In this document: one piece after another, positions 5,283 to 23,285 of the stretch | How positions within the stretch are numbered: position 1 is the stretch's first letter | How the letters are laid out: every line of letters starts with the position of its first letter | From: an uncultured delta proteobacterium | GTDB lineage: Bacteria; Desulfobacterota; Binatia; UBA9968 | DNA length: 64,000 bases | Direction of reading: 5' to 3' | Assembly: GCA_963840855.1 (NCBI GenBank) | Contig: CAWJBB010000083.1 | Span: 1-64,000 of the forward strand | The notes under the pieces: generated by a model | Databases searched by the model: none | What the model was told of the DNA's origin: nothing | What the model saw: only the letters and a program-made list of their open reading frames with translations | Made by a program: the position numbers and the translations under genes

Positions 5283-6341
5283 ATGGCTGACTTTTCAGTA
5301 ATCGACGCTGACGTGCATTTCATGCAAAAAACCGACGACTCCGACGTACGGCCTTTTATGGGAAGCCCATACAGCGATCAGGCAGGTCCCCTGCTACCGG
5401 CCACCGGCTGGGACGCCAGCGAATATGGCCGGATCAAGCCCGACGACTGGACTCCGGATCACTACCGTCGCGCCATGGATCAGGAAGGGGTTGACGTTTC
5501 CGTTCTCTTTCCGACGCGCGCTTTGCTAATTAGCCAAATTCCCCGCAACGGGTTGCCCACCGGCTATTCGGCCAGAGCCCGGGACGAGAACCTTGTGATC
5601 GCCTATTGCCGCGGCTACAACGACCACATCGCCGGCATCTGCAAAGCCAACCCGCGTCTCAAAGCGGCGGCCGTTGTGCCATTTCAGAACGTTGCCGCCG
5701 CGGTCACCGAGATTAAGCGCGCGGTTACAGAACTCGGTTTGGTGGGAATCGCGCTCTCTTCGCTGGGACTCCCCGAGCACGTGGGAGCGCCGACCTACTG
5801 GCCTATCTACCAGGAAATAGAACGCCTCAACGTGCCGCTGTTGATTCACAATCTATCCTACCAGGGACCGGGACAGGACCTGCGCGCGGATACTTTTCTC
5901 TTTCAAGATACGGTGGGCGGCTCGATGGAAACTTTTCATACCTGCACGGCGCTGATGTACGGCGGCATCTCTGACAAGTTCCCAAAACTTCGCATCGGCG
6001 TTTTCAACACCGGCATCGGTTGGGTTCCCTTTCTCATGGAACGAATGGATAAGGACTTCGAAGGAAGAAACCAGGAAGAGGCCCCGTGGCTCAAGAAGGC
6101 GCCCAGCGCGCACGTCACCGGAGGGAATTGGTATTTCGCTACTACCTACAATGAACAATCCTTGCCCTACGTCCTGCAAACCGTCGGCGAGGACCAGATT
6201 ATCTTCGGCTCCGCCTATCCGGAAGCGGATAACCTTTTCCCCGAGGCCGTATCAAGCATTCGCGCGCGCACGGATGTTTCCGACCAAGCCAAGAAAAAGA
6301 TCCTGGCCGAAAATGCCAAGGCGCTGTTCGGTTGGACGTAA
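5283..6341 (+). CDS. Amidohydrolase family 2 protein with degenerate active site
   Basis: IDADVH; GSAYPE replaces the usual SDYPH. Confidence 0.85.
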   Translation: MADFSVIDADVHFMQKTDDSDVRPFMGSPYSDQAGPLLPATGWDASEYGRIKPDDWTPDHYRRAMDQEGVDVSVLFPTRALLISQIPRNGLPTGYSARARDENLVIAYCRGYNDHIAGICKANPRLKAAAVVPFQNVAAAVTEIKRAVTELGLVGIALSSLGLPEHVGAPTYWPIYQEIERLNVPLLIHNLSYQGPGQDLRADTFLFQDTVGGSMETFHTCTALMYGGISDKFPKLRIGVFNTGIGWVPFLMERMDKDFEGRNQEEAPWLKKAPSAHVTGGNWYFATTYNEQSLPYVLQTVGEDQIIFGSAYPEADNLFPEAVSSIRARTDVSDQAKKKILAENAKALFGWT

Positions 6342-6406
6342 AACTGATTGCGGCTAAGCACGTAGCGTCCAAAACGGCTCAAGAAAGTTCCCGGCGATCA
6401 TAATAC

Positions 6407-7852: not shown

Positions 7853-8890
7853 CCCTAAATTCACAAACCAAGTGCAACACTTTCTGTATAAGGTGTTGCA
7901 ATGGGACAACGCTATGCACAGTTTTCGCTTGAAGAGCGCTGTACACTTTCCCGACTTAAGCAAGCCGGGAAAACAGTGCGCCAAATCGCGGCAGCTATGG
8001 ATCGCGCGCCATCGACTATAGCCCGAGAACTTAAGCGCAACAGTGGCACACAGGTCGGCTACCAGCCTGTTTACGCACAACAGCAGGCCAAAAGCCGCCG
8101 CTGGAAGGGGAGTCGATTGCTGCGTCAGCCTGAGCTTCAGAAAGAGGTCCTCAAACGGCTTGAGTATGGTTGGTCGCCCGCCCAAGTCGCTGGACGCTTG
8201 CGCAAGGAAAAAGGACGTAAGGTCATCAGCTACGAATCGATCTATCGGTTTATTGATGCCCAGATTCGCCGAACCAAAGACTACAGCTGGCGCCATTATC
8301 TTCCCCGAGCAAAAGCTAAGCGCGGTTGGCGTGGGCGCAGAGGCGGCAAGGTGGTCGACCGCATCGAGGGGCGCATCGCTATCGATCGGCGCCCGGCCTA
8401 CATTCACAAACGCCGCCAACCGGGCCATTGGGAAGCGGACCTTATGCTCTTTGCCAAGTATGGCCAGGCTGTTCTGGTTGCTCATGAAAGGCGCTCGCGC
8501 TTGCTTGTTGTGAGCCGTCAACCCAATAAGGCTGCTGAACCAGTAGCTACTAAGCTCATTGAAATGTTTCGCTCTCTACCCAAGTCGTTACGTCGAACCA
8601 TCACCTTCGATAACGGCACTGAGTTCTCCTATCACCATCGACTCCATAGATTAGAAATGCGTACCTTCTTCTGCGACCCTCATGCGCCCTGGCAAAAAGG
8701 TGGCATTGAAAACGGCATCGGAAGGATGCGCCGCGGCCTGCCTAGGAAAACTGATTTGGCGACACTCTCCGACCAACGCTTGCTGTCGCTCCTTCGTTCT
8801 TATAATCACACTCCTAGAAAGTGCCTTAACTACAAAACTCCGGCAGAGGTTTTTATCGGTGACCTGTTGCACTTCAAATGTGAATCCACC
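7853..8890 (+). mobile_element. IS30-family insertion sequence
   Basis: IRs attcacaaaccaagtgcaaca / tgttgcacttcaaatgtgaat; probable 2-bp TSD. Confidence 0.85.
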
Positions 8891-8911
8891 TTCCCGCTTT
8901 CGCGGGAATGA
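7901..8911 (+). CDS. IS30-family transposase
   Basis: HTH RAPSTIARELKRN, GHWEAD, TITFDNGTEF, PWQKGGIEN, PRKCLNYKTP. Confidence 0.95.
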   Translation: MGQRYAQFSLEERCTLSRLKQAGKTVRQIAAAMDRAPSTIARELKRNSGTQVGYQPVYAQQQAKSRRWKGSRLLRQPELQKEVLKRLEYGWSPAQVAGRLRKEKGRKVISYESIYRFIDAQIRRTKDYSWRHYLPRAKAKRGWRGRRGGKVVDRIEGRIAIDRRPAYIHKRRQPGHWEADLMLFAKYGQAVLVAHERRSRLLVVSRQPNKAAEPVATKLIEMFRSLPKSLRRTITFDNGTEFSYHHRLHRLEMRTFFCDPHAPWQKGGIENGIGRMRRGLPRKTDLATLSDQRLLSLLRSYNHTPRKCLNYKTPAEVFIGDLLHFKCESTFPLSRE

Positions 8912-9022
8912 CGATCGCGGGCCTTTCGGTTTTGTAAACGAAATTTTGAGACACGACACTAGAAGCTGCTATGAAAGGGTTTTTACTGGAGGCGCCGTCC
9001 AGATGAGAGAGGAGAAAAAGCG

Positions 9023-10549
9023 ATGCCAGTCTTGTCAAGAGCCGCAGCCACTAGCCTAACCGTCTTCTTTGCCGCCTACCTGGGTTTCCTGCCCGCCTCC
9101 AAGCTTGCCGCACAAACCAAGGGAAAAACGGTCGTTGTCGGCCACGGCGTCGATCTCGAATCCCTCAATCCCTACTGGCACAATACGACGGCGAATTACG
9201 CCGTCTGGCGCCATTTCCTCGAGCCTCTGGCCGAATACGATTTTGTCAAGAAAAGGTACGTGGGCGTCTTGGCGGAGTCCTGGTCCGGCACTGAAAAAGG
9301 ATGGACCTTCAGACTGCACAAGAACGTCAAATTTCACAACGGCGTGGAAATGACCGCCGCCGATGTCATCTATAGCCTCAAGAGATCCGTGGACCCGAAG
9401 CTCAGCCGTCAGATCAATCTCGCCAGGAGCATTCAATCGATACAGGCGCCCGACCCTTACACCGTGGTCGTTACAACGACGAAGCCTGTAGTCTCCCTTC
9501 TAGACTACCTCGACAACGCGTACATTCTGAGCGAGGCCGCCGCCAAGGAGTCCGGCGACGAAGCAACGTTTGGCAAGAAGCCGGCCGGCACCGGCCCATT
9601 CAAGTTTGTCGAATGGGTGCGCGGCGAAAGAGTCGTGGCTGAAAAAAACCCGCAATACTGGCGGGGAGCAGCCAAGGTCGACCGCATCATTTGGAAACCC
9701 GTCGCCGAAGACGCCGCGCGGTTGGCGTTGCTCGAATCTGGCCAGGCGGACCTGATTGCCAATGTTCCGCCGCACGAAATAGATCGCCTGCGGGGAAATT
9801 CAACGGTCCGACTCGAAGAAGCCAGAAGCGCAAGGATTATTTTCCTATTGCTCGACCCAGCCCACAAACCGCTTGACAACAAGCTGGTGCGCCAGGCGAT
9901 TCACTACGCGCTCGATAAAGACGCCCTCATCAAATACGTCCTGGATGGCAAAGCCTATCGCCTGGACGGCGTCTTGGGCCCGCATGGCTTCGGTGAAGAC
10001 CCATCTTACAAGCCATATTCCTACAATCCTCAGAAGGCGAAGGAGCTCTTGACCGCAGCGGGCTTTGCCAACGGGTTTGAAATCGACTTTTACACCTCGA
10101 CGGGGCGCTACACCAAGGATCGGGAAATAGCACAGGCGATCGCCGGACAGTTAGCGAAAGTCGGCATCAAAACCCGCTTCCACACTCCCGAATGGGGCAT
10201 CTTCAACGATCTGCACCGGGCCGGGAAATGTCCCGTCTGTTTCAGGGGCCGGGGAACGGTGGTCGACCCGGACGATTTTTTTAACGAATACTTTGAGACC
10301 GGAGTTTCCAAGAGACTCTCCTACTCGAATGCCCAATTCGACCGTTTGATCCAGCAGCAGCGGCAAATTTTTGATCCCGAGAAGCGCGCGCCGATCCTCC
10401 AGGCTGCCATCAAAATTCTGCTTGACGACGCTCCCATCGTGCCGCTGTACAACCCCATCGATATCTATGCGGCCAAACGGCGCCTGGTCTGGAAGCCTTC
10501 GCCAAAAGATTATATCAACGTAGCGGATGCCGACCTAGCCGAAAAATGA
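9023..10549 (+). CDS. ABC peptide/nickel substrate-binding protein (family 5)
   Basis: LAESW, VKFHNG, GTGPFKFVEW, YNPQKAKELL. Confidence 0.9.
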   Translation: MPVLSRAAATSLTVFFAAYLGFLPASKLAAQTKGKTVVVGHGVDLESLNPYWHNTTANYAVWRHFLEPLAEYDFVKKRYVGVLAESWSGTEKGWTFRLHKNVKFHNGVEMTAADVIYSLKRSVDPKLSRQINLARSIQSIQAPDPYTVVVTTTKPVVSLLDYLDNAYILSEAAAKESGDEATFGKKPAGTGPFKFVEWVRGERVVAEKNPQYWRGAAKVDRIIWKPVAEDAARLALLESGQADLIANVPPHEIDRLRGNSTVRLEEARSARIIFLLLDPAHKPLDNKLVRQAIHYALDKDALIKYVLDGKAYRLDGVLGPHGFGEDPSYKPYSYNPQKAKELLTAAGFANGFEIDFYTSTGRYTKDREIAQAIAGQLAKVGIKTRFHTPEWGIFNDLHRAGKCPVCFRGRGTVVDPDDFFNEYFETGVSKRLSYSNAQFDRLIQQQRQIFDPEKRAPILQAAIKILLDDAPIVPLYNPIDIYAAKRRLVWKPSPKDYINVADADLAEK

Positions 10550-10630
10550 GACTTGTCAGGCTTGCCTGTGGAGTAGTATTCACCAGGAAGGACCCCAGCG
10601 CGGCAGAGCCGCAATCAAAAGCCGGAGAAT

Positions 10631-10728
10631 CTCGCGCAAAGCATGTCCTGAGCAAAGTCGAAGGGACGCAAAGGCCGCAAAGGAAAACTTTGATTCCGAA
10701 CTTGGCGTTCTGGGCGGCTTGGCGCGAG
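10631..10728. repeat. Solo nonamer-arm hairpin (CGCAAAG/CTTGGCG) of the GxxExxY-flanking type, with a 23-bp insert
   Basis: ctcgcgcaaag[catgtcctgagcaaagtcgaagg]gacgcaaaggccgcaaag ... cttggcgttctgggcggcttggcgcgag. Confidence 0.7.
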
Positions 10729-10882
10729 AATAATCCTAAGTATCTGTACTAAAGGGCAAAGACTGGCGGTAAAATTGCGCAAGCCGCGAAAACTTTAAAG
10801 CAATACAAAGGTCACAAAAAAATTATCCTGCCGCCTCGCCGCGCTAGGCCCTTTGTGGCTAAAACCTAGGAGAGGTGTTGCC

Positions 10883-12202
10883 ATGTCAAAACCGATGATT
10901 CCAACAGCTCGCTTGGAAGCGCTCCATATGGCTCTAGACAGGATTAGAGTCGCCCCGGCCTATCAAACCGGCAAATGGTTCGTCGGGCCGCTAAATTTCG
11001 CGCCCGAGGTACTCGGCGCCATGAGCCTGCCCGAGCGCGTGGAGATCTGTGATGTCACGCTGCGCGAAGCGTCCCAGGGTTATTTCGGGGAAAAAGAGTA
11101 CGCCACCTTGGCGGCGGCTCTGGATGAAGCCGGCGTCGCGGTGATTCAGTTTCTCGCGCCCAAAACCGGTGGCGAAACCGACGAAGCCGTGAAGGTGCTC
11201 GACCGGCTGGGTAAAATGGGACTCAAAGCCAAGCTCCAACTTTACGGCGCCAGCTCGGAAGCGCAAATGGATCTGGCTCGGGATCACGGCGTCGAGATCA
11301 TTTCCTACACGATCTTTCCTCTGCCGGAATGGCAACCCATCTACGCCGCTTCCAGGAAGGTCGCAGAAGACTCCGAGACCGTGGCTCGATCGGCCGCAGT
11401 GGACAGCGAGGCGGCACTGCTGGAGTACGTCGAGCAGATGGCCGCGGCGATCAAAAGGCGCGGCATGCAACCGCGTCCCATCGCCAATTTCTTTTCCATG
11501 GCGTCTATTGATTTTTTGCGTAGTCTCGGACGCACGTGCGAAAGAGCCGGCGTCTACGCGCTCAACTTCGTCGACGCCGCGGGCAGTATGGGACCCGCCG
11601 CTTGTCGCTATGCGGTCGCGGAAGTCAAGAAGGTAGCGCCAGGGTTGACCATCGGCATGCACACCCACAACGATCTGGGACTCGCCACCGCCAACGCTCT
11701 AGCCGGCGTTGAGGCCGGAGCCTCGCAAGTCGATGTCACCATCAATGGCGCGGGGGCGAGAGCGGGCAACGCCACCTTGGCGGAAGTCGTCGTTGCAATA
11801 GAAGCTCTCTACGGCGTAAAAACAGGAGTCGACTTGACCAGACTCACAGGCTTGTCGAAGCTGTTTGAAGAGTTGTCACGATGGCCCACACCCAAAGACA
11901 AGCCGCTGGTGGGCAATTACGCTTTTAACGACTCGAGCGACACCCACAGTTTTCTTTTGCAGGCCGATTCGTTGTTGTTCGCGCCCGTCAGACCGGAGCT
12001 GGTCGGCAATGAAAGAAGGAGCCATCTCGACCTGAAATCCGGCATCCACACGCTCAGGATGCGCCTGCGGGAGATGGGCATGACCGTTCCGGAAGAAACC
12101 CTCCCTGAACTCTGGAAACGCATCCAGGGTGAATTGACGGTAAAGAGAAGAGCGCTCACCGAGGAGGAGATTCGCGGCTGCGTTGACGCCGTGCGGTCAT
12201 GA
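10883..12202 (+). CDS. LeuA/homocitrate synthase-like DRE-TIM metallolyase
   Basis: DVTLRE, HTHNDLGLATANALAG, GARAGNA. Confidence 0.85.
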   Translation: MSKPMIPTARLEALHMALDRIRVAPAYQTGKWFVGPLNFAPEVLGAMSLPERVEICDVTLREASQGYFGEKEYATLAAALDEAGVAVIQFLAPKTGGETDEAVKVLDRLGKMGLKAKLQLYGASSEAQMDLARDHGVEIISYTIFPLPEWQPIYAASRKVAEDSETVARSAAVDSEAALLEYVEQMAAAIKRRGMQPRPIANFFSMASIDFLRSLGRTCERAGVYALNFVDAAGSMGPAACRYAVAEVKKVAPGLTIGMHTHNDLGLATANALAGVEAGASQVDVTINGAGARAGNATLAEVVVAIEALYGVKTGVDLTRLTGLSKLFEELSRWPTPKDKPLVGNYAFNDSSDTHSFLLQADSLLFAPVRPELVGNERRSHLDLKSGIHTLRMRLREMGMTVPEETLPELWKRIQGELTVKRRALTEEEIRGCVDAVRS

Positions 12203-12222
12203 GCACAATTGATATCGTTTTG

Positions 12223-12353
12223 GATTCTGCTGAAAAACCCACCGTTCATCCTTCGAGGGCCTCAGGACGAACGGAGGAACCGTTGAAATCATTGGAGATT
12301 TGTCCGTTCATGCTGAGCCTGTCGAAGCATTCTTAGGGTTTTTCAGTAGAATC
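12223..12353. mobile_element. 131-bp MITE carrying a REP-like doublet
   Basis: IRs gattctgctgaaaaaccc / gggtttttcagtagaatc; 6-bp TSD gttttg; internal ccgttcatccttcga..tcaggacgaacgg and ccgttcatgctgagcctgtcgaagca. Confidence 0.8.
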
Positions 12354-12373
12354 GTTTTGGAGGTCTAACCCCA

Positions 12374-13312
12374 ATGGCAAAGATACTGATCACCGGCGCC
12401 AACGGCTTCATCGGTTCCCACACAACGCTGCTCATGGAAACCCTCGGTCACGAGGTCGTTCCCATCGACGTTGGGCCGCGCTCGCCGGACCTATCGCTGC
12501 TCGGTATCAAGGCATCCAGTCACATCATGAACGTCACCGACAGCGCGGCTTTCCGCGTCCTCTGCGAAAAGGGAAAGCCGACGCATATTTTTCATGCCGC
12601 CCATCCACCGCGCGATGAAACCCCCACTGTGTTGAATTATTGTTATCACGCCATGACCAATATTTTAGAAGCGGCGAAGGATCTCAAGATCCAACGCGTC
12701 GTCTATTCCAGCTCCGCGTCGATCTACGGCCCACTGCAAAAACCGGACGGCAGCCTGGTCAAAGAAGACGACGCGGTGACGATCTATCCGACCTATTTTT
12801 ACCGCGCCGCGAAGACAGTCTCCGAATGGATGGGAAATTTTTACAAAGAAAAACACGGCGTCGACTTCGTCGCCCTGCGCTACTCGTCGGTGTACGGCCC
12901 GGGCTTGTATCGGAGCATTCCGTTGGAACTCAAGAAAGGTATTCTCGGCCAGGCCTGCCGGCCCTTTCTCACCCGCCCGCTGGACGATCTGATCTATATC
13001 GACGACGTTGCCGACGCGGTGCGCCGCGCGCTATTTGCCGACAAACCGCTCAGCCGCGCCTATAACATCGGCCTGGACAAGGCCTATGCCAGTGAAGATC
13101 TGGTTCGCGCGATTGGCAATGCGTTGCCGGAGCTAAAATTCGAAATCGGCCAACATCCCAATGCCTTCGAAGTCGCCCCCCACCGCCTGCGCAGCCCGCT
13201 GGATATCTCTCTCGCCAAACGGGAACTGGGCTGGGCGCCGACGATCTATCTCGAAGAAGGCATCGCGCGCCTCGCGCAGTGGTTGAAGGAGCATAAGGCG
13301 AAATTGCGTTGA
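12374..13312 (+). CDS. NAD-dependent epimerase/dehydratase
   Basis: ITGANGFIG, SSASIYG, YRAAK, LRYSSVYGP. Confidence 0.9.
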   Translation: MAKILITGANGFIGSHTTLLMETLGHEVVPIDVGPRSPDLSLLGIKASSHIMNVTDSAAFRVLCEKGKPTHIFHAAHPPRDETPTVLNYCYHAMTNILEAAKDLKIQRVVYSSSASIYGPLQKPDGSLVKEDDAVTIYPTYFYRAAKTVSEWMGNFYKEKHGVDFVALRYSSVYGPGLYRSIPLELKKGILGQACRPFLTRPLDDLIYIDDVADAVRRALFADKPLSRAYNIGLDKAYASEDLVRAIGNALPELKFEIGQHPNAFEVAPHRLRSPLDISLAKRELGWAPTIYLEEGIARLAQWLKEHKAKLR

Positions 13313-13387
13313 CGGCTTTACACTACTCGGGAATCGTGTGCGGTCAATGATAATTAGAATCAAGGTTGGTTACTTGGTATGTGTTGC

Positions 13388-13525
13388 CGTGTCGCCGAAG
13401 ACCGCCAGGACTGCTAATGGCTTTACGTTGTCACGGGCGCCAAAGCGCAACCCACGCTCCAGGAGCCGATCAAGAATCCGGCGCGATTTCCCTGGCATGA
13501 AGTAAAAAAGGTGGATCACTATCTA
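13388..13525 (+). pseudogene. C-terminal fragment of a SNF2 helicase/DUF3883 protein
   Basis: Hand translation RVAEDRQDC*WLYVVTGAKAQPTLQEPIKNPARFPWHEVKKVDHY. Confidence 0.7.
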
Positions 13526-13539
13526 TTTTTTTTCTATTT

Positions 13540-13833
13540 TATTTTCAGGTTACCTTCCCTGGCCCCGGCGACGACATCGATCGCATCCGGGTGCCGGAGA
13601 CCCGCCTGCTAGTTACGCCATCGGTGGAGGCCCAGTTAAATGAACGACAGAAGAAAATTATGGTTCACGTTCTTACGGAAGGTTCCGTCACCAATCGTTG
13701 GTGTCGCTCCCGCTTCCATGTGGTTTACAATACCGCCTACCGGGATCTGCAAGGCTTGGTCGAGTTGGATTTGATCGACCCGGTCGGTGGTGGTCGGAGT
13801 GTGAAATATGTCCCGAAATCTGCTCATGCGTAA
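13540..13833 (+). pseudogene. C-terminal winged-helix fragment of an AlbA_2/RecG-like regulator
   Basis: FQVTFPGP...LNERQKKIM...TAYRDLQGLVELDLIDPVGGGRSVKY. Confidence 0.7.
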
Positions 13834-14349
13834 TCCATCGATAACCCATCGAAGATTTGGCGTAATCCATCGATCCGCCTCGACCGGTAATACCGCCCGG
13901 AAGCTTGACGAGTGCCAGGGCATCGTCTGCGCTAAAACGGTTCAATCCATCGATAATCCATCGATCAAACTATGGAAGCCATCGACGGATGTCTCGCCGA
14001 ATCCACCGATAATTGACCGACGAAATCGCCGAACCGACCGATCCGGCTGTCGGAATCGGAGCGTCGAATCGTCACGGAATCGTCAGATTGACTCGCCCGT
14101 GGATCGGTCAAGCGCTTCGCCGAATCGTGAAGTAATCGTTAACCGATTCGCTGTAATCGTAAACTCCGCCGCTCGGAATCTATCACCAATCCATCACCAA
14201 AACGCAGAACTCTATCACCGAGCTGGCAGGCCGCCTGCGATTCGATTGTTGGAAGCATCCGATAATCATCCGACGAAAACGAAGAAATCATCCGACCGAC
14301 TCAGCGAATCTACCGATAATCAACCGACAAATTTTCGCGATCTACCGAT
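13832..14349 (+). repeat. Array of eight triads of unit-specific 11-mers (spacing 11 then 21 bp)
   Basis: Triad starts at 13832, 13944, 14000, 14067, 14123, 14177, 14253, 14307. Confidence 0.8.
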
Positions 14350-14417
14350 CCTTCCATACGAACAAGTTGCGTGCGCAAGGTTTTCGATGTTGATTGAACA
14401 GAGAGCAAAGAACCAAT

Positions 14418-14868
14418 ATGGCCGACTACAAGAAAAAACTCCTCGAAGTCGCTTTGCCGCTTGAAGCCATTAACAAAGCTTCGGCGCGGGAGAAGTCGAT
14501 TCGGCATGGCATCCGTCGACGTTGCACTTGTGGTGGGCGAGGCGGCCGTTGGCGGCGGCACGGGCGGTGATTTTTGCGCAGATGGTGGATGATCCATCGG
14601 CGCACCCGGATATTTTCAAGACTGAGAAAGCGCAGGACAAAGAGCGGCAACGCCTTTTCAAGATCATCGAGGATCTCGTACTGTGGGAGAATACGACTAA
14701 CGATGAGGTTCTTCAGCGGGCTCGCGACGAGATCTGGCAGAGTTGGCGCGCAACCTGCGCGGAGAATGCGGATCATCCGCGCCAAAGAACTATTCGACCG
14801 GGACAAACTTCCCGCATTTTCACGATCCGTTCGCCGGTGGTGGATCGTTGTCGCTGGAGGCGCAACTG
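14418..14868 (+). pseudogene. Truncated DUF1156 adenine-specific DNA methylase (N-terminus)
   Basis: [46 protein letters not shown]...HDPFAGGGS; frameshifts, then truncation. Confidence 0.85.
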
Positions 14869-15082
14869 AATATAGAAATCATGAGGCTTTGTACGACTCC
14901 GCCAATTAGTCGCAACTCACAAGGACCTGGCCCGCAAGCTGGAAGCGCTTGAAAAAAGATACGACGCGCAGTTTAAGGTCGTCTTCGATGCGATCCGGGA
15001 ACTCATGAGGCCACCGACTCCAAAGCGCAGAAAAATCGGATTTTTGGTGGAAGAAAAAGCCGCGTCGTATGGACGGCGGTAA
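14869..15082 (+). pseudogene. C-terminal fragment of an ORF6N-domain DNA-binding protein
   Basis: [47 protein letters not shown]...RKIGF. Confidence 0.8.
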
Positions 15083-15117
15083 TGTTATCCCATGTTTCGG
15101 AATACGCGCTACGTAAG

Positions 15118-15315
15118 CACGCCCCACTCCCGCCTGTTGCCTAATGCCTCGTGCCTATTTTACATTTCGACGCTTCGGGAATTCTCGAAACGTGGAAGCG
15201 TCAGCGAGAGGGATCGGAATGGTGATCACGGCGTCCGCCTCACCCAGCCTGCCTCTTGCCAGAACAGACCCTTCTCATCTACATTGAGTCCCGCCGATGC
15301 GGCAGGCCGCCAGGG
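15118..15315 (+). repeat. ~195-bp direct repeat, copy 1 (contains the 32-bp palindrome)
   Basis: Highly similar to 19097-19290. Confidence 0.9.
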
Positions 15316-15729
15316 ATCGCCGCGCCGGGTAGCCAGGTGCATCCCCCTTCCTGGCTTTCCACTGGTGGGTCGCCGCAAACCATACTGAGAGATCAGTCGT
15401 GATCGTATTGGCGGCGATAGACGGGCTTGTGATGGAAAAAGAAGATGGTTTTTTCGCAACCCGTGTGCATTGATCGGACTACCGCAAGATCACAGACACG
15501 ACTAACGAGCCCTGCGGTCCGGGTTGCTATGATGCTAGACCCGACCCCCAAAAACGACCCCTCCTTCTGTTCAGGCCCGCCCACGGCGCCCTTCACGAAG
15601 CTCTGTCAGGTCTTTTGGCGCGATAATTCTTTTCAAAACTGTTCACTATTAGACAGCAATCCTTCCCGCGTGTGGTTACATTAATCCTGAAAGTTATTGC
15701 ATTTTCGAGAGCTGTAATGGCGCGCAAGA

Positions 15730-15809
15730 GGTAGAAGACCGGGCCACACACTCAACGGTGGCATGGACTTCGGCTCCGGTTTGACAGCGAACGTATCCCC
15801 GGTTCTGCC
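15730..15809 (+). ncRNA. Candidate structured leader RNA (multi-stem junction)
   Basis: Closing stem ggtagaa(ga)ccggg/cccggttctgcc; inner stems gccac/gtggc and gtttg/cgaac. Confidence 0.4.
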
Positions 15810-15866
15810 CCCCCCTCCCTCTTCCAATATCCAAAGGCTATCAAGAGCCTTAAAAAGGAGAGAGTT

Positions 15867-16424
15867 ATGAATCCTCTATTATTGATCGCTATCCCCGTAG
15901 GGTTGGTGATCCTGGGCATGATATTGAATAGTTTTGGACTTTCTTTCGCTTCCCCTCCAACTTCACAGGAACAAGATCCTGCTAAGAGGGTAGCGGCGGA
16001 AAAGGAATCTTACCGCAAGTTCTTTGACATCCAGAGAACCCAGTCTATGAAAAGGCAGAAACGGGTCGGCCAGTATGCCTGGTTGGTGATGGCCGCCTTT
16101 ATCGGCGCCTTCATCTGGCTGTACATGGACACCGTGAACAAGACCAGCCTTTCGAGTCGCATTGCCGGACTTCAGACATTGGGAACGGAAGAGGGCAAAC
16201 AGATGGTTCTCTCGGTGACACTGAGCGACGGGAACAATGTCAAATACCTGATCAAATTGCCCCAAGCCGACAAGTTGGATGGCGCCGTAAAAGAAGACGT
16301 TAAGATAGAAAAGGTCTCATCCTGGGAGCTGCAGAGACTGGGTACGGCTTTGAGTACCGGCGATAATCCATTGCCTATGGGTATTGCGCTGAAGATTTCC
16401 CAAGCAGCAGTCGAAGCCAGATAG
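15867..16424 (+). CDS. Hypothetical membrane protein (2 TM)
   Basis: RBS aaggag; two hydrophobic segments. Confidence 0.7.
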   Translation: MNPLLLIAIPVGLVILGMILNSFGLSFASPPTSQEQDPAKRVAAEKESYRKFFDIQRTQSMKRQKRVGQYAWLVMAAFIGAFIWLYMDTVNKTSLSSRIAGLQTLGTEEGKQMVLSVTLSDGNNVKYLIKLPQADKLDGAVKEDVKIEKVSSWELQRLGTALSTGDNPLPMGIALKISQAAVEAR

Positions 16425-16453
16425 ACGCGGGATTTCTAGAGATCCAAATCAGA

Positions 16454-16524
16454 CTTGAGGTGCCAATTAGGCACCTCAAGCCGGTGATTCATTTTGACGT
16501 TTTGAGAATTCTCAAAACATCGAA
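16454..16524. repeat. Composite palindrome: GAGGTGCC..GGCACCTC plus the 32-bp palindrome
   Basis: cttgaggtgccaattaggcacctcaag ... tttgacgttttgagaattctcaaaacatcgaa. Confidence 0.8.
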
Positions 16525-16732
16525 GTATGCTCTGCTTTCTCTGAATCACGCGTCGAACCGAAAGTGGCAGTCGGTGTGGACGTAAGGTCTCTACAACGTA
16601 AGAGTTTTTCAGGAACATGCAGGACAAACTCCTTTAAATTCTTATCTTGTTCCGTACTAGCCATTACTTGCGCACTCACTATTCAGGAATTGTTCTGACT
16701 GTGTATATACATACGAAAGAATGGGGTGTTTG

Positions 16733-17206
16733 ATGCGCAAACAGACGATCAACTCAGGTTCTGAAGCTGTCTCACGTTCAGGTGATGTGTGGTTGGATCT
16801 CGAGCGTTTAGCTCAGGTCGAGATCACCTCGGAAAGCGCCGAACATCCCATTGAGGCAGCCCTGATCTCCGATCGCGGGCCGGGATGGCGGGCGGCGCAA
16901 GCCGGGCAACAGGCGATCCGCGTCATCTTTGACCAACCCGTGAGTATCGGGCGTATCCTTCTCCGATTCGACGAAGAGGAACAGGGGCGCACGCAGGAAT
17001 TCGTGTTGCGCTGGTTACCGGAAGGCCAGCAGTCGCCTCGAGAGATCGTGCGTCAGCAGTATACCTTCAGTCCGCCTGGTACTGACCAAGAGATCGAGGA
17101 TTATTTTGTCAAGCTCAACCGAGTAACCGCGCTTGAACTAGAGATCGTTCCGGATATAAGCGGAGGCGCTGCCTACGCGTCGTTGGCGCAGATGCGTCTC
17201 GCATAA
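16733..17206 (+). CDS. Discoidin/galactose-binding-like domain protein
   Basis: EITSE..HPIE.AL...GWRAA..G.Q.IR..FD.P pattern. Confidence 0.65.
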   Translation: MRKQTINSGSEAVSRSGDVWLDLERLAQVEITSESAEHPIEAALISDRGPGWRAAQAGQQAIRVIFDQPVSIGRILLRFDEEEQGRTQEFVLRWLPEGQQSPREIVRQQYTFSPPGTDQEIEDYFVKLNRVTALELEIVPDISGGAAYASLAQMRLA

Positions 17207-17243
17207 GCGCGTTAAGGTTATTTAAAAAAGGAGGTAACTGAAG

Positions 17244-17804
17244 ATGGAAAACAATATCGAGACCAATCCCATGAACCAGGACATCTTGGCAGGAAAGTGG
17301 AAGCAAATGCGCGGCGAGCTTAAAACGTGGTGGGGTAAACTCACCGATGACGACTTCGACAGGATCGGCGGTCAGAAGGACAAGCTGATCGGTCTGATAC
17401 AAGAGAGATACGGATATACTCGCGAGCAGGCCGAGCAAGAGATTGAGCGGCGCCTCCAAGAGTACGGCGACAAGACAGGCGGGGCCGTTGGCCGTATGTC
17501 GGTCAAGGCACGAGAGCTCGGCGCGACTGCCGCGAAGAAGGCGAATGTGGCGGCACCCGTTATCGGTGAGAAGATGAAATCGCTGGCGAACGTGATCCGT
17601 GGAAAGGCGCCGCGCGAAGGCAAGATAGGCACAACGGCAACCAAAGTAGCGGGTGGGTTAGAATCTGCGAGTAGTTATCTGCAAGAGAAGAAATTCGACC
17701 ATCTGGGAGAAGACTTCAGGGGCTTGGTTCGGCGCTACCCTGTACGATCTCTATTGATCGGTCTTGGTCTAGGCTTTTTGCTCATCGGACGTAAAAAAAA
17801 GTAA
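17244..17804 (+). CDS. CsbD/YjbJ-family stress protein with ElaB-like C-terminus
   Basis: GKWKQMRGELKTWWGKLTDDD...QERYG; C-terminal VRRYPVRSLLIGLGLGFLL. Confidence 0.85.
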   Translation: MENNIETNPMNQDILAGKWKQMRGELKTWWGKLTDDDFDRIGGQKDKLIGLIQERYGYTREQAEQEIERRLQEYGDKTGGAVGRMSVKARELGATAAKKANVAAPVIGEKMKSLANVIRGKAPREGKIGTTATKVAGGLESASSYLQEKKFDHLGEDFRGLVRRYPVRSLLIGLGLGFLLIGRKKK

Positions 17805-17879
17805 TGAATGATCAGAAAAGCTATAATAGGAGTATGGAGCACCTCCAGCAAGGTTGCTGAAAAAGAAATCCAGATCAGG

Positions 17880-17957
17880 CGTGAGGTGCCGAATTGGCAC
17901 CTCACGCTCGTGACTGCCGTCATTTTCGATGTTTTGATAATTCTCAAAAACGTGGAA
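17880..17957. repeat. Composite palindrome, copy 2
   Basis: cgtgaggtgccgaattggcacctcacg ... ttcgatgttttgataattctcaaaaacgtggaa. Confidence 0.8.
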
Positions 17958-18163
17958 GTATCGGGGAGACCTTTATCTCGGCCAATCTCGCTTAACGCCG
18001 ATAAGTCAATTGCTCAGGCTCGACCCCAAATTTGCGACCCCATTGCCACCTGGCGTCGCACTCAAGTTTTCCAACTGACGCGCGGTAAAGCCGCTGCGAC
18101 TCCGGACCAACATCAAAAGCGGACGCCGTGAACCGCGCCGCGTCGAGATTGGAGGCGTGCACT

Positions 18164-18301
18164 ATGAAGGTCCTGCTAATCGAACCCATACTAGATAGAT
18201 ACGTGGCAGCGGTCCAAAGGGGCCGGAAGGAATGGAGCGCGAAAGAAGTAGAGGCGTTACTAATCAAACTAAGAGAAGAGATACTGGAGTGCCTAAAATA
18301 A
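18164..18301 (+). CDS. Small hypothetical protein (45 aa, not in the ORF track)
   Basis: RBS ggagg; MKVLLIEPILDRYVAAVQRG...EILECLK. Confidence 0.5.
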   Translation: MKVLLIEPILDRYVAAVQRGRKEWSAKEVEALLIKLREEILECLK

Positions 18302-18344
18302 GAGTTGGCTTGTGCAAGATAGCCATTAGAGGAAGGTGATTTTT

Positions 18345-18563
18345 ATGCCACATGATCACAGATTTACGATCGCGGACGATGAGGCGGTGCAGGTGCTTCT
18401 TGATAAGATGCTGGGTGGAGGAACGCGACAGAAACGCCGGGAAAAGCTCCTGAAAGCACTAGATGAGGCGTCTCGGCACTATGAAAATACCACCCAAAAG
18501 CAGAGGCAAGCTTTTTTCCATGGACTGTTAACCGGCTACGCAGTCGCGTTAAAGCTCTTGTAG
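18345..18563 (+). CDS. Small hypothetical protein
   Basis: RBS-like gaggaaggtg; 72-aa ORF. Confidence 0.55.
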   Translation: MPHDHRFTIADDEAVQVLLDKMLGGGTRQKRREKLLKALDEASRHYENTTQKQRQAFFHGLLTGYAVALKLL

Positions 18564-18649
18564 TTGAAAAAGGGCAATGTCGCGTGCCCACCGGGACGAG
18601 TACGTGTCTGGTGCTCGTGGTGCCACGTTGAGAAGCACCCTGAGCCTAA

Positions 18650-18723
18650 GATCGTTGTCGCAGCGAGTGGGGGTTAAGGAAAGAAATCGGGTTCGAGTCG
18701 GTGGAGAAATAATCGACCTATGA
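18650..18723 (+). pseudogene. C-terminal remnant of a RelE/ParE-like toxin
   Basis: GVKERNRVRVGGEIIDL* overlaps the antitoxin start (ATGA). Confidence 0.55.
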
Positions 18724-18980
18724 CTAAGATTGAATTAAAGAAAGCATCCGAGCCATTATCAAAATACGCCCAAAAGGCCAGAAAAGACCCGGTTATTGTT
18801 GTGAAGAAGGGAAAACCTTTTGCGGCAGTGGTGCCGATCCGGAACGCGGATGAAGAGAGCCTCGCGCTGAGCACCAACCGCAAGTTCCTCAAGATCATAG
18901 AGAGGTCCAGGGCCCGTGTAAAAAAAGAGGGCGCCATTTCGGCTAGCGAACTGCGCCGGCGCCTTGGTTTAGGAAAGTAG
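18720..18980 (+). CDS. Phd/YefM-like antitoxin
   Basis: LSKYAQKARKDPVIVVKKGKPFAAVV. Confidence 0.75.
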   Translation: MTKIELKKASEPLSKYAQKARKDPVIVVKKGKPFAAVVPIRNADEESLALSTNRKFLKIIERSRARVKKEGAISASELRRRLGLGK

Positions 18981-18989
18981 CTTGCTCAT

Positions 18990-19021
18990 TTCCACGTTTC
19001 CGGAATTCCGGAAACGTGGAA
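18990..19021. repeat. Perfect 32-bp palindrome
   Basis: ttccacgtttccggaattccggaaacgtggaa. Confidence 0.95.
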
Positions 19022-19096
19022 GTTCCCCCTCAGTTAGGATCAGCGAGCACCCCGGCATCTTTTCGGGTTCGGATACGATCATGATTTTTTCCCCAC

Positions 19097-19290
19097 CACG
19101 CCCACTCCCGCCCGTTGCCTAATGCCTCGTGCCTATTTTACATTTCGACGTTTCGAGAATTCTCAAAACGTGAAAGTGTCAGCGAGGGGGTCGGAACGGC
19201 GATCACGGCCACTGACCCAGCCTGCCTCTTTTGCCAGAACAGACCGTTATCATCTACATTGAGTCCCGCCGATGCTGCAGGCCGCCAGGG
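19097..19290 (+). repeat. ~195-bp direct repeat, copy 2
   Basis: Highly similar to 15118-15315. Confidence 0.9.
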
Positions 19291-19674
19291 TCGACGCGCC
19301 GGGCATCCTGGTACGAACGCGCTCGTGAACCGTGAGCGATAGGGTTTGATAGCGCGTTATCCTTGAACCTTTTAACCTTGAACTTTGAACTGCCGTAGGG
19401 CCTTGAACGGAGCGTCTGCCATGAGCGCCCCAACGCAAAGTCGAAGGGCCGTGATTGAACGACTGGAACAGGCTTCTGCTTTGAAGCGTTGAACTTTGAA
19501 CCTTGAACGTTAAACGGCGACAGGCCTTGAACCGGCGACAACCCTGGAACGGCCGCTGCCCACCGAAACGATGATAGCCCTGACTATCGAGTCCTGTGGC
19601 CTGAGTTGCTATGATGCTAGAGCTGTTGCCCTAAGGGGTCCCTTTATCCTCATGAAGCTGGTGGAGCGAACGCT

Positions 19675-19996
19675 ATGAGTGTCGAAAAGGATCGAGAAAG
19701 TGCCGAAAAGTTGAAGAAGAGGTTTCTAGCCGCTGATGGTGAACGCATTCTGCGGGTGATCCTCTATGGTTCGCGCGCCCAGGGTGGCGCCACCGAGGAG
19801 AGTGATTTTGATTTCCTGGTGGTTGAAAAGGACGCTGTCTCGAAGCGCCAGGAGATGCGGCGTCTGCGCCAAGCCGTCGCCGACCTCGATTGTCCCGTCG
19901 ACGTCTGGGTTATGGGAGAGCAGGAGTTCGATGAGACTAGGAGGTCTTGCCTATCCGGCGCATAAATACGGAGTAGTGTTGTATGAGAACCCCTGA
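19675..19996 (+). pseudogene. MNT minimal nucleotidyltransferase antitoxin (frameshift/deletion near 19937)
   Basis: LYGSRAQG..SDFDFLVV; C-terminus GGLAYPAHKYGVVLYENP lies in another frame. Confidence 0.8.
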
Positions 19997-20100
19997 GCAG
20001 GTGAAGTGGGATTTTGTACAGCAATGGCTGGACAAGGCTAGAAAAGACCTTGCGACAGCTGAGATCTTACTCAGAGAGGAATTCGAAGATTACGAGACCT
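19983..20100 (+). pseudogene. Truncated HEPN-domain toxin
   Basis: MRTPEQVKWDFVQQWLDKARKDLATAEILL, cut by ttgaac repeats. Confidence 0.7.
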
Positions 20101-20452
20101 TGAACGTTTGAACCTTGAACCGGCGAGAGCCGTGGAACGCTTGGAACGGCCCGTGGCCTAATCTCTTGGGGGCAAGTCACGAGCACGAATCACGATCACG
20201 TCTCTCTGTTTTCTTCAGCAAACGCGCGTGTCCGATTGACGAGGAGTACGAAACTAGACCTGACCCTGAAGATATCCTGAAGATATCGTTACGAATTGGC
20301 ACAGCAAATGGAACCAGAGTTGGCTCGGCAACTGCGCTCCGACGGCCTCGCTGTCTGGCAAAACTAACTCGGGCAGGTGACCTGCCAGTCGGGCAAGCAG
20401 TCGGTGTACATAGGGAAGTCGTGTGTTAGGCCCTTTTTTCTTATCGCGGGGC

Positions 20453-20839
20453 TTATCCACTTCTCGAATAATCTGCTTTGCCCGCTATCACACCACGGAC
20501 GCCCCCACGAGGATTGTTGGTATCCCCCGATCTCCGGGGAATCAGATGAATGTGGCAGTGCATGATAGTCTGTCCGGCATCGGCACCGATATTGATCCCT
20601 ACGTTGTATCCGTGGGGTTTAAAGCATTCATCGAGTAACTTCTTGCCTTCGTCGACCATAGCCCACATTGCTGTCTTCTCTTCGACCGTGAGTGAGTCAG
20701 GAACATGACGATTCAAGATGATTAACAAGTGTCCTTCGGTCACTGGGTACTTGTCCCAGCGGGCAAAACAAAGCACTGACGTCAGAACTTTCTCGCCGTC
20801 AACCGGTGAACAGAAAGGGCAGTTTACTTCTTCTCCCAA
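20453..20839 (-). CDS. HIT family hydrolase
   Basis: CPFC, YPVTEGHLLII, AGQTIMHCHIHLIPR. Confidence 0.95.
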   Translation of the reverse strand: MGEEVNCPFCSPVDGEKVLTSVLCFARWDKYPVTEGHLLIILNRHVPDSLTVEEKTAMWAMVDEGKKLLDECFKPHGYNVGINIGADAGQTIMHCHIHLIPRRSGDTNNPRGGVRGVIAGKADYSRSG

Positions 20840-21993
20840 CGATCATACCCCCGTTCTTGTATGAGAAAGTCGCACCTTTTGGAAAGCGACTGTAGAGCCA
20901 CCTCCGTAAGAAACGCCGGATCCTCAAAACCGACCAGGTCGTAGCGGACTTCTTGTTCGAAGGCCTCCGGGTAGCGACTGTGTTCCAGTTGCCAGCACGT
21001 TAAGATCCAGTCCTGCCGCCGCTTCAAAAATTCCGGCGTCGGTATGCTATCGCTTTTAGCGGAATTGCATTTCTTGCACGTCGGTAGCAAGTTCCATAGG
21101 TTGTTGTTATGGGTCTGGGAGAACGGGAGAAGATGGTCGATGTCAAGGGTTTGCGCCGACAGGCAAGTTGGGCACCACACACACAAAAGTGGTCCCTTTC
21201 GCATGGCCTCTAGGTAGCAGATTTTTGCGTCCCTGACTTGGCGGTCTTCTAGGTAAGTCTTGGTCAGCGTTTGAAAGATTTTCTGGAACGCCTCTGGGGT
21301 AAAGGGGTCCTTTTGTATTCGCGCCGTGAACTCGGCCCAATGATAGAGGATGGCGTCGGTGCCGAGAAGCAAACCACCGATCTTTTGAAAAACTTCGTAA
21401 TAGTCCCGGCGCAGCTCGAAGTTGCCAAAATTCTGGACGACCCATCCCGGCGTAAGTTGACCGACCCGAGGCGTTGACGTTTTACTTGACGAAGGCTGCT
21501 TCACGATACCATATAGACCCTTGAGGACTGACTGTCCCAGGTGTTTCATGGGCATGGTGGCGATAGTTTGTCGAAGCTTTTGCAGTAGCGCCAGGTACTT
21601 CGCCTCGTCCGACTCGCTCAACCTTCCGTTGTGATAATCGTGCTGGAATTGAGCGAAGCCGCCCCTGCGGGAGTACACGTCCGGCAGCGCCTTAAAGATC
21701 CGCCGGAAGGCCAGCGGCTTGGTCTTTTCCCCGCCGTGTTTCTGCGGTATGTCCTGCTCGACGATAGGCCAGTAGTACTGGACCCACTTTTCCACCAATA
21801 GACCGAAAGGAGCGGTAACGAAATCGGCTTCTTGTTTGATGTGCGGCGACTCGGAGGAGATCTCGATGAGGCCTCGGAGCAAAGCGAACTTGTAGGTAGT
21901 GTCTTTGGATTCGTAGCGTAGGATACGCAAAAGATTCTGGTAGATGTCTCCGGCCACGCTGCCATTTCTAATCCATGAGCTTTCGGCTGGCAA
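20824..21993 (-). CDS. HNH endonuclease with TYKFALLR N-terminal domain
   Basis: CVWC...IDHLLPFS...WNLLPTCKKCNSAKSD; start uncertain. Confidence 0.85.
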   Translation of the reverse strand: MPAESSWIRNGSVAGDIYQNLLRILRYESKDTTYKFALLRGLIEISSESPHIKQEADFVTAPFGLLVEKWVQYYWPIVEQDIPQKHGGEKTKPLAFRRIFKALPDVYSRRGGFAQFQHDYHNGRLSESDEAKYLALLQKLRQTIATMPMKHLGQSVLKGLYGIVKQPSSSKTSTPRVGQLTPGWVVQNFGNFELRRDYYEVFQKIGGLLLGTDAILYHWAEFTARIQKDPFTPEAFQKIFQTLTKTYLEDRQVRDAKICYLEAMRKGPLLCVWCPTCLSAQTLDIDHLLPFSQTHNNNLWNLLPTCKKCNSAKSDSIPTPEFLKRRQDWILTCWQLEHSRYPEAFEQEVRYDLVGFEDPAFLTEVALQSLSKRCDFLIQERGYDRWEKK

Positions 21994-22091
21994 GGCTAGA
22001 AATTTCGAAAAAAGAATTGCCGGAAAGTACGAGGTCTGGCAGAATAAGCGACAAGCCGCAAGAACAAGGCAGGGACTGAAGTTTCACGGCC

Positions 22092-23014
22092 ATGAAGCTT
22101 TACATTGGTGTAACGGATAACGACTGGTATCGGTATCTAAGCCGGTTTCCCCATGTTGACGAGGTCAACTTTTGGCAGCCGGGCGGGAGTCACTTGTTTA
22201 AAGCTCTCAGACCCGGAGAGCTTTTTCTATTCAAATTGCATAGCCCTCAAAACTTTATCGCTGGTGGAGGTTTCTTCACGCACGCATCAATACTGCCGGT
22301 AAGCTTGGCGTGGGAAGCCTTTGGCGAAAAGAATGGGGCTGCTTCCTTTACGGAGATGCGGTCAAAGATTCTGCAGTATCGGGGATCAACGACCGATTCG
22401 CGGGAGGATTTCGAAATCGGCTGCATCCTTCTTCAGCAACCCTTCTTTTTCCCCGAAAGAGAATGGATTTCCGTCCCATCGGATTTTCATCGCAATATTG
22501 TTCAAGGAAAAACGTACGACGTAGATTCGGCAACCGGACAAGACCTCTGGGACGCGGTTCAGCTCCTGCTCCGGTCACAGCCGCTTCTACAAGAGCAAGT
22601 CGGCGAAGGCGAAGTCATCTGGAGTTCAGCGTTGGTCAGGCAGCGTCTCGGTCAAGGGGCTTTCCGAATCCTGGTGACGGACACCTATGATCGCCACTGT
22701 GCTGTTACCGGCGAGAAAGCACTGCCAGCACTCGAAGCTGCTCATATCCAGCCCGTGACCCAAAAAGGAAAGCACCGAATCGATAACGGCCTCCTTCTCC
22801 GATCAGACATTCATCGACTCTTCGACTCTGGCTATGTCACGATAACTCCAGACTACAAGTTCCACGCCAGCGGAAAGTTAAAGGACGATTTCGACAACGG
22901 GGAAGAGTACTTCCGCCTTCAAGACAGTCCAATCTGGCTGCCACGCGATTCAGATAGCCGCCCTAAAAGCGGGAATTTCTAGAATGGCACTCCGATACTG
23001 TTTTTCGAGGATAG
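22092..23014 (+). CDS. Putative restriction (HNH_2) endonuclease; homopolymer frameshift near 22966
   Basis: EVNFWQP, RLGQGAFR, CAVTGE..LEAAHI, NGLLLRSDIHRLFD; expected end REFLEWHSDTVFRG is in a shifted frame. Confidence 0.9.
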
Positions 23015-23026
23015 GAAGGGTGAAAG

Positions 23027-23258: not shown

Positions 23259-23285
23259 TACTTAAACTCGCTGGAGAAATAATCT

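Follow-up and report, generated by a model that had tools for sequence, protein, structure and literature searches.

Three kinds of DNA site come closest to the element described here, the first two being the tandem direct-repeat operators of winged-helix regulators of the OmpR/PhoB 'pho box' type and the plasmid partition centromeres that lie behind the genes of their binders, such as sopC after sopB and parS after parB. The element is an array of direct repeats on the forward strand of a 64,000-nt stretch (the window) of contig CAWJBB010000083.1, from an uncultured delta proteobacterium, and consists of eight units, each a triad of 11-mers, that start at the stop codon of a truncated gene for a winged helix-turn-helix (wHTH) domain. 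As in a pho box, 11-bp direct repeats on one face of the DNA would presumably be read head-to-tail by a recognition helix and wing. Unlike a pho box, the triad sites lie 3′ of the predicted binder's own stop codon rather than in a promoter, occupy positions 0, 11 and 32, and occur as one cluster per genome; the predicted binder is an immune effector rather than a response regulator, and specificity diversifies from allele to allele. With partition centromeres, the triad loci share the order of a DNA-binding-protein gene followed by a phased direct-repeat array and a specificity that diverges between systems, and our wHTH model has a structural match in AspA of pNOB8 (PDB 5k5q). However, the triad loci have no ParA-type partner or plasmid, the proteins carry NADase/Schlafen-like effector domains, and in the window's family the motif varies within an array. 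The third comparison is with integron attC sites, which likewise combine variable sequence with a conserved architecture at the 3′ ends of cassette open reading frames (ORFs) and, like the triads, are stacked in arrays inside a locus that collects defence cassettes. An attC site, however, is built of imperfect inverted repeats, folds in single-stranded form and depends on the IntI integrase; the triads are direct repeats with no fold signal and no integrase.

The protein families involved are known. The gene upstream of the triads belongs to the Schlafen-HisKinase-HTH/DUF4062 families, which join HATPase_c_4, DUF4062 or AlbA_2 domains to a wHTH. Proteins of the pSlfn group with HisKinase and HTH domains make up 19.2% of 5,930 pSlfn proteins (bioRxiv 10.1101/2025.07.24.666596), Schlafens carrying a minimal histidine kinase together with a wHTH have been reported in BREX-related loci of at least 1017 taxa (PMC12839542), DUF4062 is described as a TIR-like NADase in three 2026 preprints, and some relatives of these families have been shown to defend against phage. 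In the passages covered, this literature proposes the fused domains as infection sensors and mentions no cognate DNA site, and we found no description of such a site at the gene's 3′ end in the texts covered of work on DUF4062, HATPase_c_4/AlbA_2, DIP2311 or anti-phage Schlafens. What the MANTIS preprint calls 'direct repeats' refers to how methylation target sites are oriented and has no connection with the triads. The candidate cognate site behind the stop codon thus appears, as far as this literature goes, not to have been described.

The array was noticed in a sequence-only reading, which placed units at 13832, 13944, 14000, 14067, 14123, 14177, 14253 and 14307 and described each as two abutting 11-mers with a third copy 21 bp later. 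When the sequence is re-read, all eight are present at these positions, and the plan recurs in six to eight instances within 13832-14349. Units 1, 2, 3, 5, 6 and 8 satisfy a strict triad test (at most three mismatches at offsets 11 and 32). Unit 4 fails because its third copy has decayed, its doublet being good and its third copy weak as first described, and unit 7 because its third copy lies at +33; the first copy of unit 7 begins AAGC. Successive unit starts are separated by 112, 56, 67, 56, 54, 76 and 54 bp. Between 13800 and 14400, 11-mer self-matches with at most two mismatches are found at 24 positions for offset 11, at 12 and 6 for offsets 21 and 22, at 35 for offset 32, and at 13 and 12 for offsets 54 and 56, with zero matches at nearly all remaining offsets from 1 to 79. 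In the whole 64-kb window, 31 positions pass the strict test, every one inside 13829-14310, while the 7,096,277-bp assembly yields 30 clusters, six of which are the array and 24 of which are singles scattered elsewhere, many of them homopolymer-like or of low complexity. The triad pattern is real and far beyond chance expectation. Across the window and nine related loci, 41 units were detected (five of them in the unpublished genomes G015 and G067), and 40 of these yield a consensus of AATCnWCCGAT, AATCnWCCGAC, a 10-base spacer beginning with GA, and AATCnWCCGAT, each 11-mer consisting of a constant AATC and seven variable bases.

The position of the triads at gene ends emerges from DNA alone. 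Public contigs were scanned with a DNA pattern that encodes the triad geometry and holds no protein information. The scan returned at least 120 metagenome stretches along with 10 viral ones, and 80 of the metagenome stretches were retrieved. At least one unit is detected in 77 of the 80 fetched metagenome loci, and a homologue of the wHTH-family effector ends within 80 nt of the first unit in 45 of the 70 loci having at least 150 nt of upstream sequence. Whether triads lie behind homologues was a check set beforehand, and these loci, retrieved by DNA pattern alone, answer it positively. Of the 40 loci whose ORF end is clear, 15 have a TAA and 14 a TGA stop codon that overlaps the AATC, and in the remaining 11 the stop precedes the unit by 3-7 nt; the first unit of the window likewise overlaps the TAA stop (13831-13833) of the wHTH fragment, as had been claimed. 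In 42 loci, the cognate 11-mer is confined to the coding strand downstream of the gene, save for two stray single matches, which led us to reject an operator upstream of the effector gene. Genome-wide, the cognate motif has 12 matches in G229 and eight in G315, and in both genomes three of these are clustered and the sole cluster lies behind the gene. The loci occur inside Hma defence systems (described below), beside restriction genes (type I or type III) or genes for DUF1156 methylases, or before housekeeping genes. A conserved downstream partner was likewise rejected, as the downstream genes are mutually unrelated (Fic, methylases, HsdS/HsdR, a second Schlafen gene, housekeeping genes). We propose a class of cognate wHTH sites behind intact DUF4062/AlbA_2-HATPase_c_4-wHTH genes, with at least two direct repeats of 9-11 bp, on the coding strand, starting within about 30 nt of the stop, and a motif class that agrees with the helix class of the gene alongside. 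The window shows the repeats and the agreement of motif and helix, with only residues 416-512 of the binder gene remaining.

The 7-mer of the first unit follows the protein. In an AlphaFold model of the wHTH domain (mean pLDDT 81), helices at 38-50, 55-62 and 66-78 are followed by a beta-hairpin wing, and the third helix is the recognition helix of a winged helix. The fold is generic, with structural matches to MarR, ArsR and HlyU, and PDB 3lmm (DIP2311) superposes on the model at 1.1 Å over 57 columns. The covariation suggested by the sequence-only reading is borne out, in that the first-unit 7-mer changes together with residues where the predicted recognition helix begins. The helix sequence YNTAYRD goes with CATCGAT in six loci, the window among them, and also in L220, which came from a genome search, and the pairing of the window's longer segment, YNTAYRDLQ, with CATCGAT recurs in L111, L127, L129, L146 and L220. 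Similarly, [RK]DTA[HYN]RD goes with ATCCGAT or GTCCGAT, YDTIRRD and its variants with TACCGAT, YDTANRD with TTCCGAT, and SPQAVY[EK]D with ATCAAC, while GTCAGAT, TATCACC, GACCGAT, GCCCGAT and TACTACC are single cases. Across 43 domains, high class information and low within-class entropy coincide at five positions, 65-70 of the model without the invariant T68, located just ahead of helix 3 or in its first turn; scaffold and wing are the same throughout, and the tail differs within classes. When pairs of domains are stratified by identity over the rest of the domain, those sharing at least four of the five helix residues have a common motif in 3/5, 10/25, 20/31, 35/36 and 11/11 cases in the five strata, versus 0/199, 13/417, 18/175, 0/4 and 0/0 of the pairs that do not share them.

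The same arrangement is found in distant members of the family. A second sample started from the protein. Of 401 genomes of the phylum, 54 carry a homologue (E ≤ 1e-20); 30 loci were returned, of which 28, with homologues at 26-74% identity, have usable gene ends. Homologues that are just 26-37% identical have two to five direct copies of a 9-11-bp motif directly after the stop, unrelated to AATC, and distant loci with the same helix have the same motif (L226/L233, L229/L234 and L227/L230). At least three copies of some 9-mer occur in the 150 nt after the stop in 14/28 loci, compared with 77/1238 control windows (6%), and none of seven homologues with a different C-terminal domain has such repeats when read by eye. 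AlbA_2-type relatives (G092, L102 and L113) have their own 11-bp tandem motifs behind the stop. These motifs belong to a ACACGCAA class and a GTGCAAATC class (L023 of genome G092 at about 8150-8190, L102, L113 and L027), and genome G067 retains a motif of the GTGCAAATC class without the gene.

The window array itself lies in what is left of an Hma defence locus, a 1.3-kb wreck extending from the 3′ end of an effector gene to a frameshifted stub of hmaB. Hma is defined by an HmaA helicase, an HmaB DUF1156 methylase and an HmaC DUF499 ATPase in one operon; relatives have it intact, and the window keeps only a fragment of HmaB. The effector remnant (13540-13833, forward strand) comprises the last 97 codons, which encode the C-terminal wHTH domain with its YNTAYRDLQ-class recognition-helix segment, and ends with the TAA noted above. 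By tblastn, it is 68% identical to residues 416-512 of an intact 512-aa protein in the related locus L025; it has a weak Pfam match to DIP2311-like_C, and the gene is of the DUF4062/Schlafen-like-HATPase_c_4-wHTH type. No upstream part of the gene was found, the first ~415 codons being lost, and tblastn detects no second copy elsewhere in the genome. An AT-rich stretch with an 11-12-bp tandem (TRF score 43) lies at 13500-13550, at the junction where the 5′ part was lost. The sequence-only reading had placed the fragment between SNF2/DUF3883 and DUF1156 remnants, and only the latter stands. Searches with HmaA (tblastn, 9000-26000) yield no remnant, nor does tblastn recover an HmaC remnant in 9-26 kb, and the actual upstream neighbour is a gene for a NAD-dependent epimerase (12374-13312). 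The DUF1156 remnant is the 5′ stub of hmaB, which encodes the adenine methylase of Hma (14394-14819, forward strand). It contains only residues 1-142, matches Pfam DUF1156, shows 87-92% identity in two frames (tblastn) and has a frameshift near 14510. A conserved tail (14350-14418, forward strand) lies between the array and the hmaB start and is alignable with the tails of G093 and L102. Scans for sigma-70-like promoters and for terminators predict none within 13300-14600.

BLAST searches with the region and a related array reveal similar arrays in the genomes of 3/41 relatives and in 8/90 genomes of the same family, both counts including the window's own genome. The cleanest relative is L025 (genome G093), which encodes HmaA (SNF2, Helicase_C and NOV_C domains), the 512-aa DUF4062-HATPase_c_4-wHTH protein, a nine-unit array, HmaB (DUF1156) and HmaC (HEPN_Swt1 and DUF499), with HmaA, HmaB and HmaC each identified by PADLOC at E = 0. 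Cargo flanking the arrays varies among relatives and includes an MNT/HEPN pair, CBASS genes, NYN, a TIR-like protein, GmrSD and DUF6119. In G067 (L027) the array lies between GmrSD and DUF6119, and in G015 (L028) a two-unit fragment lies beside a type I HsdS gene; these two unpublished genomes bear only on their two loci and on the five consensus units. The embedding of extra genes in Hma has already been published (PMC8565338; bioRxiv 10.1101/2024.01.29.577857), with embedded cassettes reported in 62.7% of 1485 Hma systems (bioRxiv 10.1101/2024.01.29.577857), and Hma has since been renamed the DUF499-centred BREX-related system, type 1 (PMC12839542). Although Hma is the host of the window array, the array does not belong to Hma itself: triads occur in a single one, L058, of 61 HmaB loci drawn from many phyla, and the array was therefore rejected as a core component. 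The two units of L058 are flanked by a duplicated 5′ stub of hmaB on one side and by the start of the true hmaB on the other. Such duplicated stubs of about 22 codons, fused to a TTCCGAT triad upstream of the true hmaB, are seen at L058:7020-7216 and in L161 at about 1500-1560, and from their sequence these fusions look like the scar of cassette stacking. Stacked arrays and hmaB stubs would be sequence-level traces of cargo exchange inside Hma loci, the mechanism of which is not addressed in the parts covered of the preprint that describes the embedding (bioRxiv 10.1101/2024.01.29.577857).

Seven of the eight window units belong to classes that elsewhere lie directly behind an intact gene with a distinct helix. 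Unit 1 (13832-13874; coordinates here are on the forward strand) is of the CATCGAT class cognate to the adjacent wHTH allele and is the unit whose AATC overlaps the stop codon; unit 2 (13944-13986) is of the same class and has an orthologous unit with the same spacer in G016. Unit 3 (14000-14042) is of a mixed CACCGAT/GACCGAC class, and GACCGAT adjoins an intact gene in L147, as does GTCAGAT in L021, the class of unit 4 (14067-14109) being GTCACGG/GTCAGAT. Unit 5 (14123-14165; GTGAAGT/GTTAACC/GTAAACT) shows inter-copy differences that are conserved across genera, and its class was not seen directly behind any intact gene in the loci compared. The TATCACC class of unit 6 (14177-14219) adjoins an intact gene in L025, and the slot it occupies reads ATCAA three times in G092 and G093. 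Unit 7 (14253-14296) is of the ATCCGAC class, which adjoins intact genes in L105, L139, L153, L159 and L221, and unit 8 (14307-14349) of a TACCGAT/AACCGAC class, TACCGAT adjoining an intact gene in nine loci. The hmaB-proximal end is common to the family arrays, which run through GTCAGAT, a GTAAAG type, a CATCA type, ATCCGA, TACCGAT and the tail, and the arrays diverge on the side of the effector gene, with a first unit there that matches the allele resident at the locus. The window and G016 have a common core order and vary mainly gene-proximally; other orders are found in metagenome arrays. L103 resembles L025 in the gene body (83% over 1014 nt) and, at 74%, in the distal units, whereas the wHTH domain and the proximal unit or units differ, which by alignment appears to be a clean swap of the wHTH domain plus its proximal site. 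Together with the seven unit classes found behind intact genes, this swap agrees with the earlier suggestion that the array records successive exchanges. Five array-bearing genomes hold just zero to three genes of the wHTH family (none in G047, and one for nine units in G093), so that distal units are without a matching binder; the array as a hub for many paralogous binders was rejected on these counts.

We consider it probable, from the comparative evidence, that the triads are cognate docking sites for the C-terminal wHTH encoded upstream and that the window array is a palimpsest of such sites, a relic without its binder. The upstream protein would be an immune effector, with a TIR-like NADase (DUF4062) or Schlafen N-lobe, an HATPase_c_4 middle and a wHTH at its C terminus. 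Lying on one face of the DNA, with the third two helical turns on, the three 11-mers would offer a docking site for this wHTH, possibly with three protomers to a triad. Differing wHTH alleles would read differing 7-mers, each allele bringing a matching triad at its stop codon, and swaps of the wHTH domain plus proximal site, together with unequal crossing-over between look-alike units, may have accumulated sites with several different specificities in the stretch that separates the effector gene from hmaB in the Hma operon. The window's effector gene is missing its first 415 or so codons and its hmaB survives as a frameshifted stub, which makes the array there most likely a relic without a binder. 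Of the two origins suggested in the sequence-only reading, wHTH operators of differing specificities are supported by the gene-end association and the helix covariation, with binding deduced from comparative data; integrase arm-type sites are not, as there is neither a recombinase nor an inverted-repeat architecture.

As to purpose, our guess is that the effector may need a private DNA ligand, either as a cis tether or latch that silences or positions it or as an autoregulatory roadblock before the next gene. A more specific version, which we put forward as a speculation with the odds against it, is a DNA latch in which the effector is caught during its synthesis at its own gene-end site, silent or poised, with DNA acting as the antitoxin, and is released when the site is lost, degraded or competed for during infection. 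On this view, changes of allelic specificity would mirror an arms race against decoy triads carried by phages, such as those that might be represented by four viral contigs with orphan triads, and stacked arrays would be its fossil record. Schlafen-like or NADase effectors whose middle is HisKinase-like and whose tail is an HTH rank among the most frequent uncharacterised architectures of bacterial immunity. If each allele does carry its own site at its stop, the ligand of the HTH would be predictable in advance for many members, the loci would supply a natural residue-to-base recognition table for this wHTH class, and the role of the site as tether, latch or roadblock would become a sharp question about how effectors are kept off.

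Several observations weigh against docking sites and a relic array. The triads have no adjoining intact gene in 25/70 pattern-found loci, and L144 has a different C-terminal domain with TACCGAT units behind it nevertheless. The pair statistics are not phylogenetically independent and the motif classes largely coincide with protein clades, so that the 43 domains amount to about 10 independent classes rather than 43 data points. Because the wHTH domain and the first unit are contiguous, co-inheritance alone yields much covariation, and the main exceptions to the pairing concern A versus G at the first variable base, which the five helix residues do not predict. The mean mismatch sum does rise from 1.6 at unit rank 1 (n=45) to 5.9 at rank 2 (n=32) and 6.1 at rank 3 (n=16), in favour of docking sites and relic distal units, but this rank effect is biased since the scan pattern required one well-formed unit; in the window and L025, long arrays that were found without the pattern, the first unit is no more perfect than the others. 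Lastly, the 54-56 bp spacing, the cross-genus unit order and the kept stop-free frame described below hint at a function of the long arrays themselves.

Such a function would make the long array a working platform, either a phased nucleoprotein scaffold or regulator before hmaB or a decoy library for foreign (phage) DNA-binding proteins. We regard this as unlikely. It would account for the regular spacing and the unit order conserved across genera, for the concerted change of three copies at one slot (ATCACC in the window and G047 versus ATCAA in G092 and G093), for the persistence of arrays without an intact wHTH gene in G047 and the window, and for orphan triads on four IMG/VR contigs. However, descent or transfer would suffice, with no need of selection, to keep order and spacing; units farther from the gene are more degenerate than those next to it; the five genomes searched hold no set of binders to match; and the finding of triads in just 1/61 Hma loci from other phyla implies that Hma does not need the array. 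Somewhat similar odds, which we would call distinctly low, attach to the triads as attC-like sites at cassette boundaries, at which a recombinase would insert, delete and stack cassettes inside Hma. The sites do abut the cassette gene's stop codon in a system known for embedded cassettes (the 62.7% cited above), G047 and G102 join two different cargo genes at the same point in the last unit, upstream genes meet the array at differing units but always at AATC, and hmaB 5′ stubs flank the two-unit arrays of L058 and L161. Against this, the repeats are direct rather than inverted, the folding energy of the RNA equals that of shuffled sequences (z = -0.17, 100 shuffles), no recombinase is conserved nearby, and microhomology between look-alike units can create coincident junctions. 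Moreover, what covaries with the motif is the wHTH domain, not the gene in its entirety; the L103/L025 breakpoint falls inside the gene, and stand-alone genes outside any cassette host show the same arrangement. Integron attC sites proper were rejected on the direct repeats, the folding z and the absence of an integrase in the flanks.

The stop-free frame raises a coding alternative, a 218-aa protein or a translated bridge ORF with a meaningful product, to which we assign very little probability. The frame (13808-14464, forward strand, 218 codons) spans the whole array and has no Pfam match, nor is there a PADLOC match. One forward frame is stop-free in 7/9 long arrays and an eighth has a single stop, with frame-jitter p values from 0.0005 to 0.18 for each of these eight; the frame is seen in the window, L025, L103, L026, L023, L024, L102 and L135. 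In L025, the ORF runs on through the gap and stops 16 nt short of hmaB. By eye, many loci have a start codon that overlaps the effector stop (NTGA) or sits 5-6 nt before it (ATGnnTAA), which suggests translational coupling into the array. However, substitutions are even across codon positions (257/259/278), changed codons are non-synonymous by about 3:1, orthologous DNA is partly in differing frames between arrays (e.g., 99/175 nt in the window versus L025), and the indels that separate the window from L103 have lengths not divisible by three. A conserved protein was rejected on the even substitutions and the shifting frames. A protein-coding tandem repeat, against which the sequence-only reading had argued from the 11-bp period, does not agree with the periods of 11, 21 and 54-56, the even substitutions or the frames that differ between orthologues, and the 218-aa ORF is without purifying selection, though its stop-free frame is oddly kept. 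At most, translation itself would be selected, and the frame may stay open for this reason, perhaps avoiding polarity in the operon. The array as a structured or processed non-coding RNA, for instance a guide-like array, is an alternative to which we give almost no credence. It lies on the coding strand inside an operon and is probably transcribed, and HmaC has a HEPN RNase domain, but Rfam 15 gives 0 matches at E up to 1 within 12500-15500, the folding energy is no different from that of shuffled sequence, repeats in direct orientation have no way of pairing with one another, 11/21 phasing belongs to duplex DNA, and the array is missing from 60 of the 61 other Hma loci. A CRISPR array was rejected because the repeated part varies between units and just the four bases AATC are constant, and replication iterons or an oriV because the motif changes from unit to unit and there is no Rep gene.

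Viral contigs contribute two kinds of sequence. The four orphan triads (L092, L093, L096 and L099, at about 2001-2043) are of the AATC type and of GTCCGAT, TTCCGAT and TACCGAT classes; no wHTH-family gene was found near them, their neighbours being an integrase (on one contig), an HNH gene and unknowns, and they could be relics, mis-binned host DNA or decoys. The other six of the 10 IMG/VR matches (L090, L091, L094, L095, L097 and L098, at about 2001) are a near-identical palindromic element in which a G-run, AATC and a C-run are repeated, and which precedes short GACC/GGAC-type repeats and is unrelated to the triads. With six matches of this kind and four orphan triads among uninformative neighbours, a viral origin of the triads was rejected.

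An extra triad with a 10-bp unit is found inside arrays, with TATCCGCAAC at 0, 10 and 32 in L026 (G016:C195) at 420-480 and in L025 at about 6300-6360, and equivalents in L023 and L027. It has no AATC start and resembles a DnaA-box-like 9-mer, and no gene adjoining it was found in these four loci. Elsewhere in the window, an IS30-like transposase (HTH_38 and rve) is encoded at 7901-8911, and the regions 20824-22982 and 23286-25898 hold two HNH endonuclease genes and a gene for an 870-aa GmrSD-DUF4268 protein. With these genes close by, the neighbourhood of the wrecked Hma locus is one of defence genes and mobile elements.

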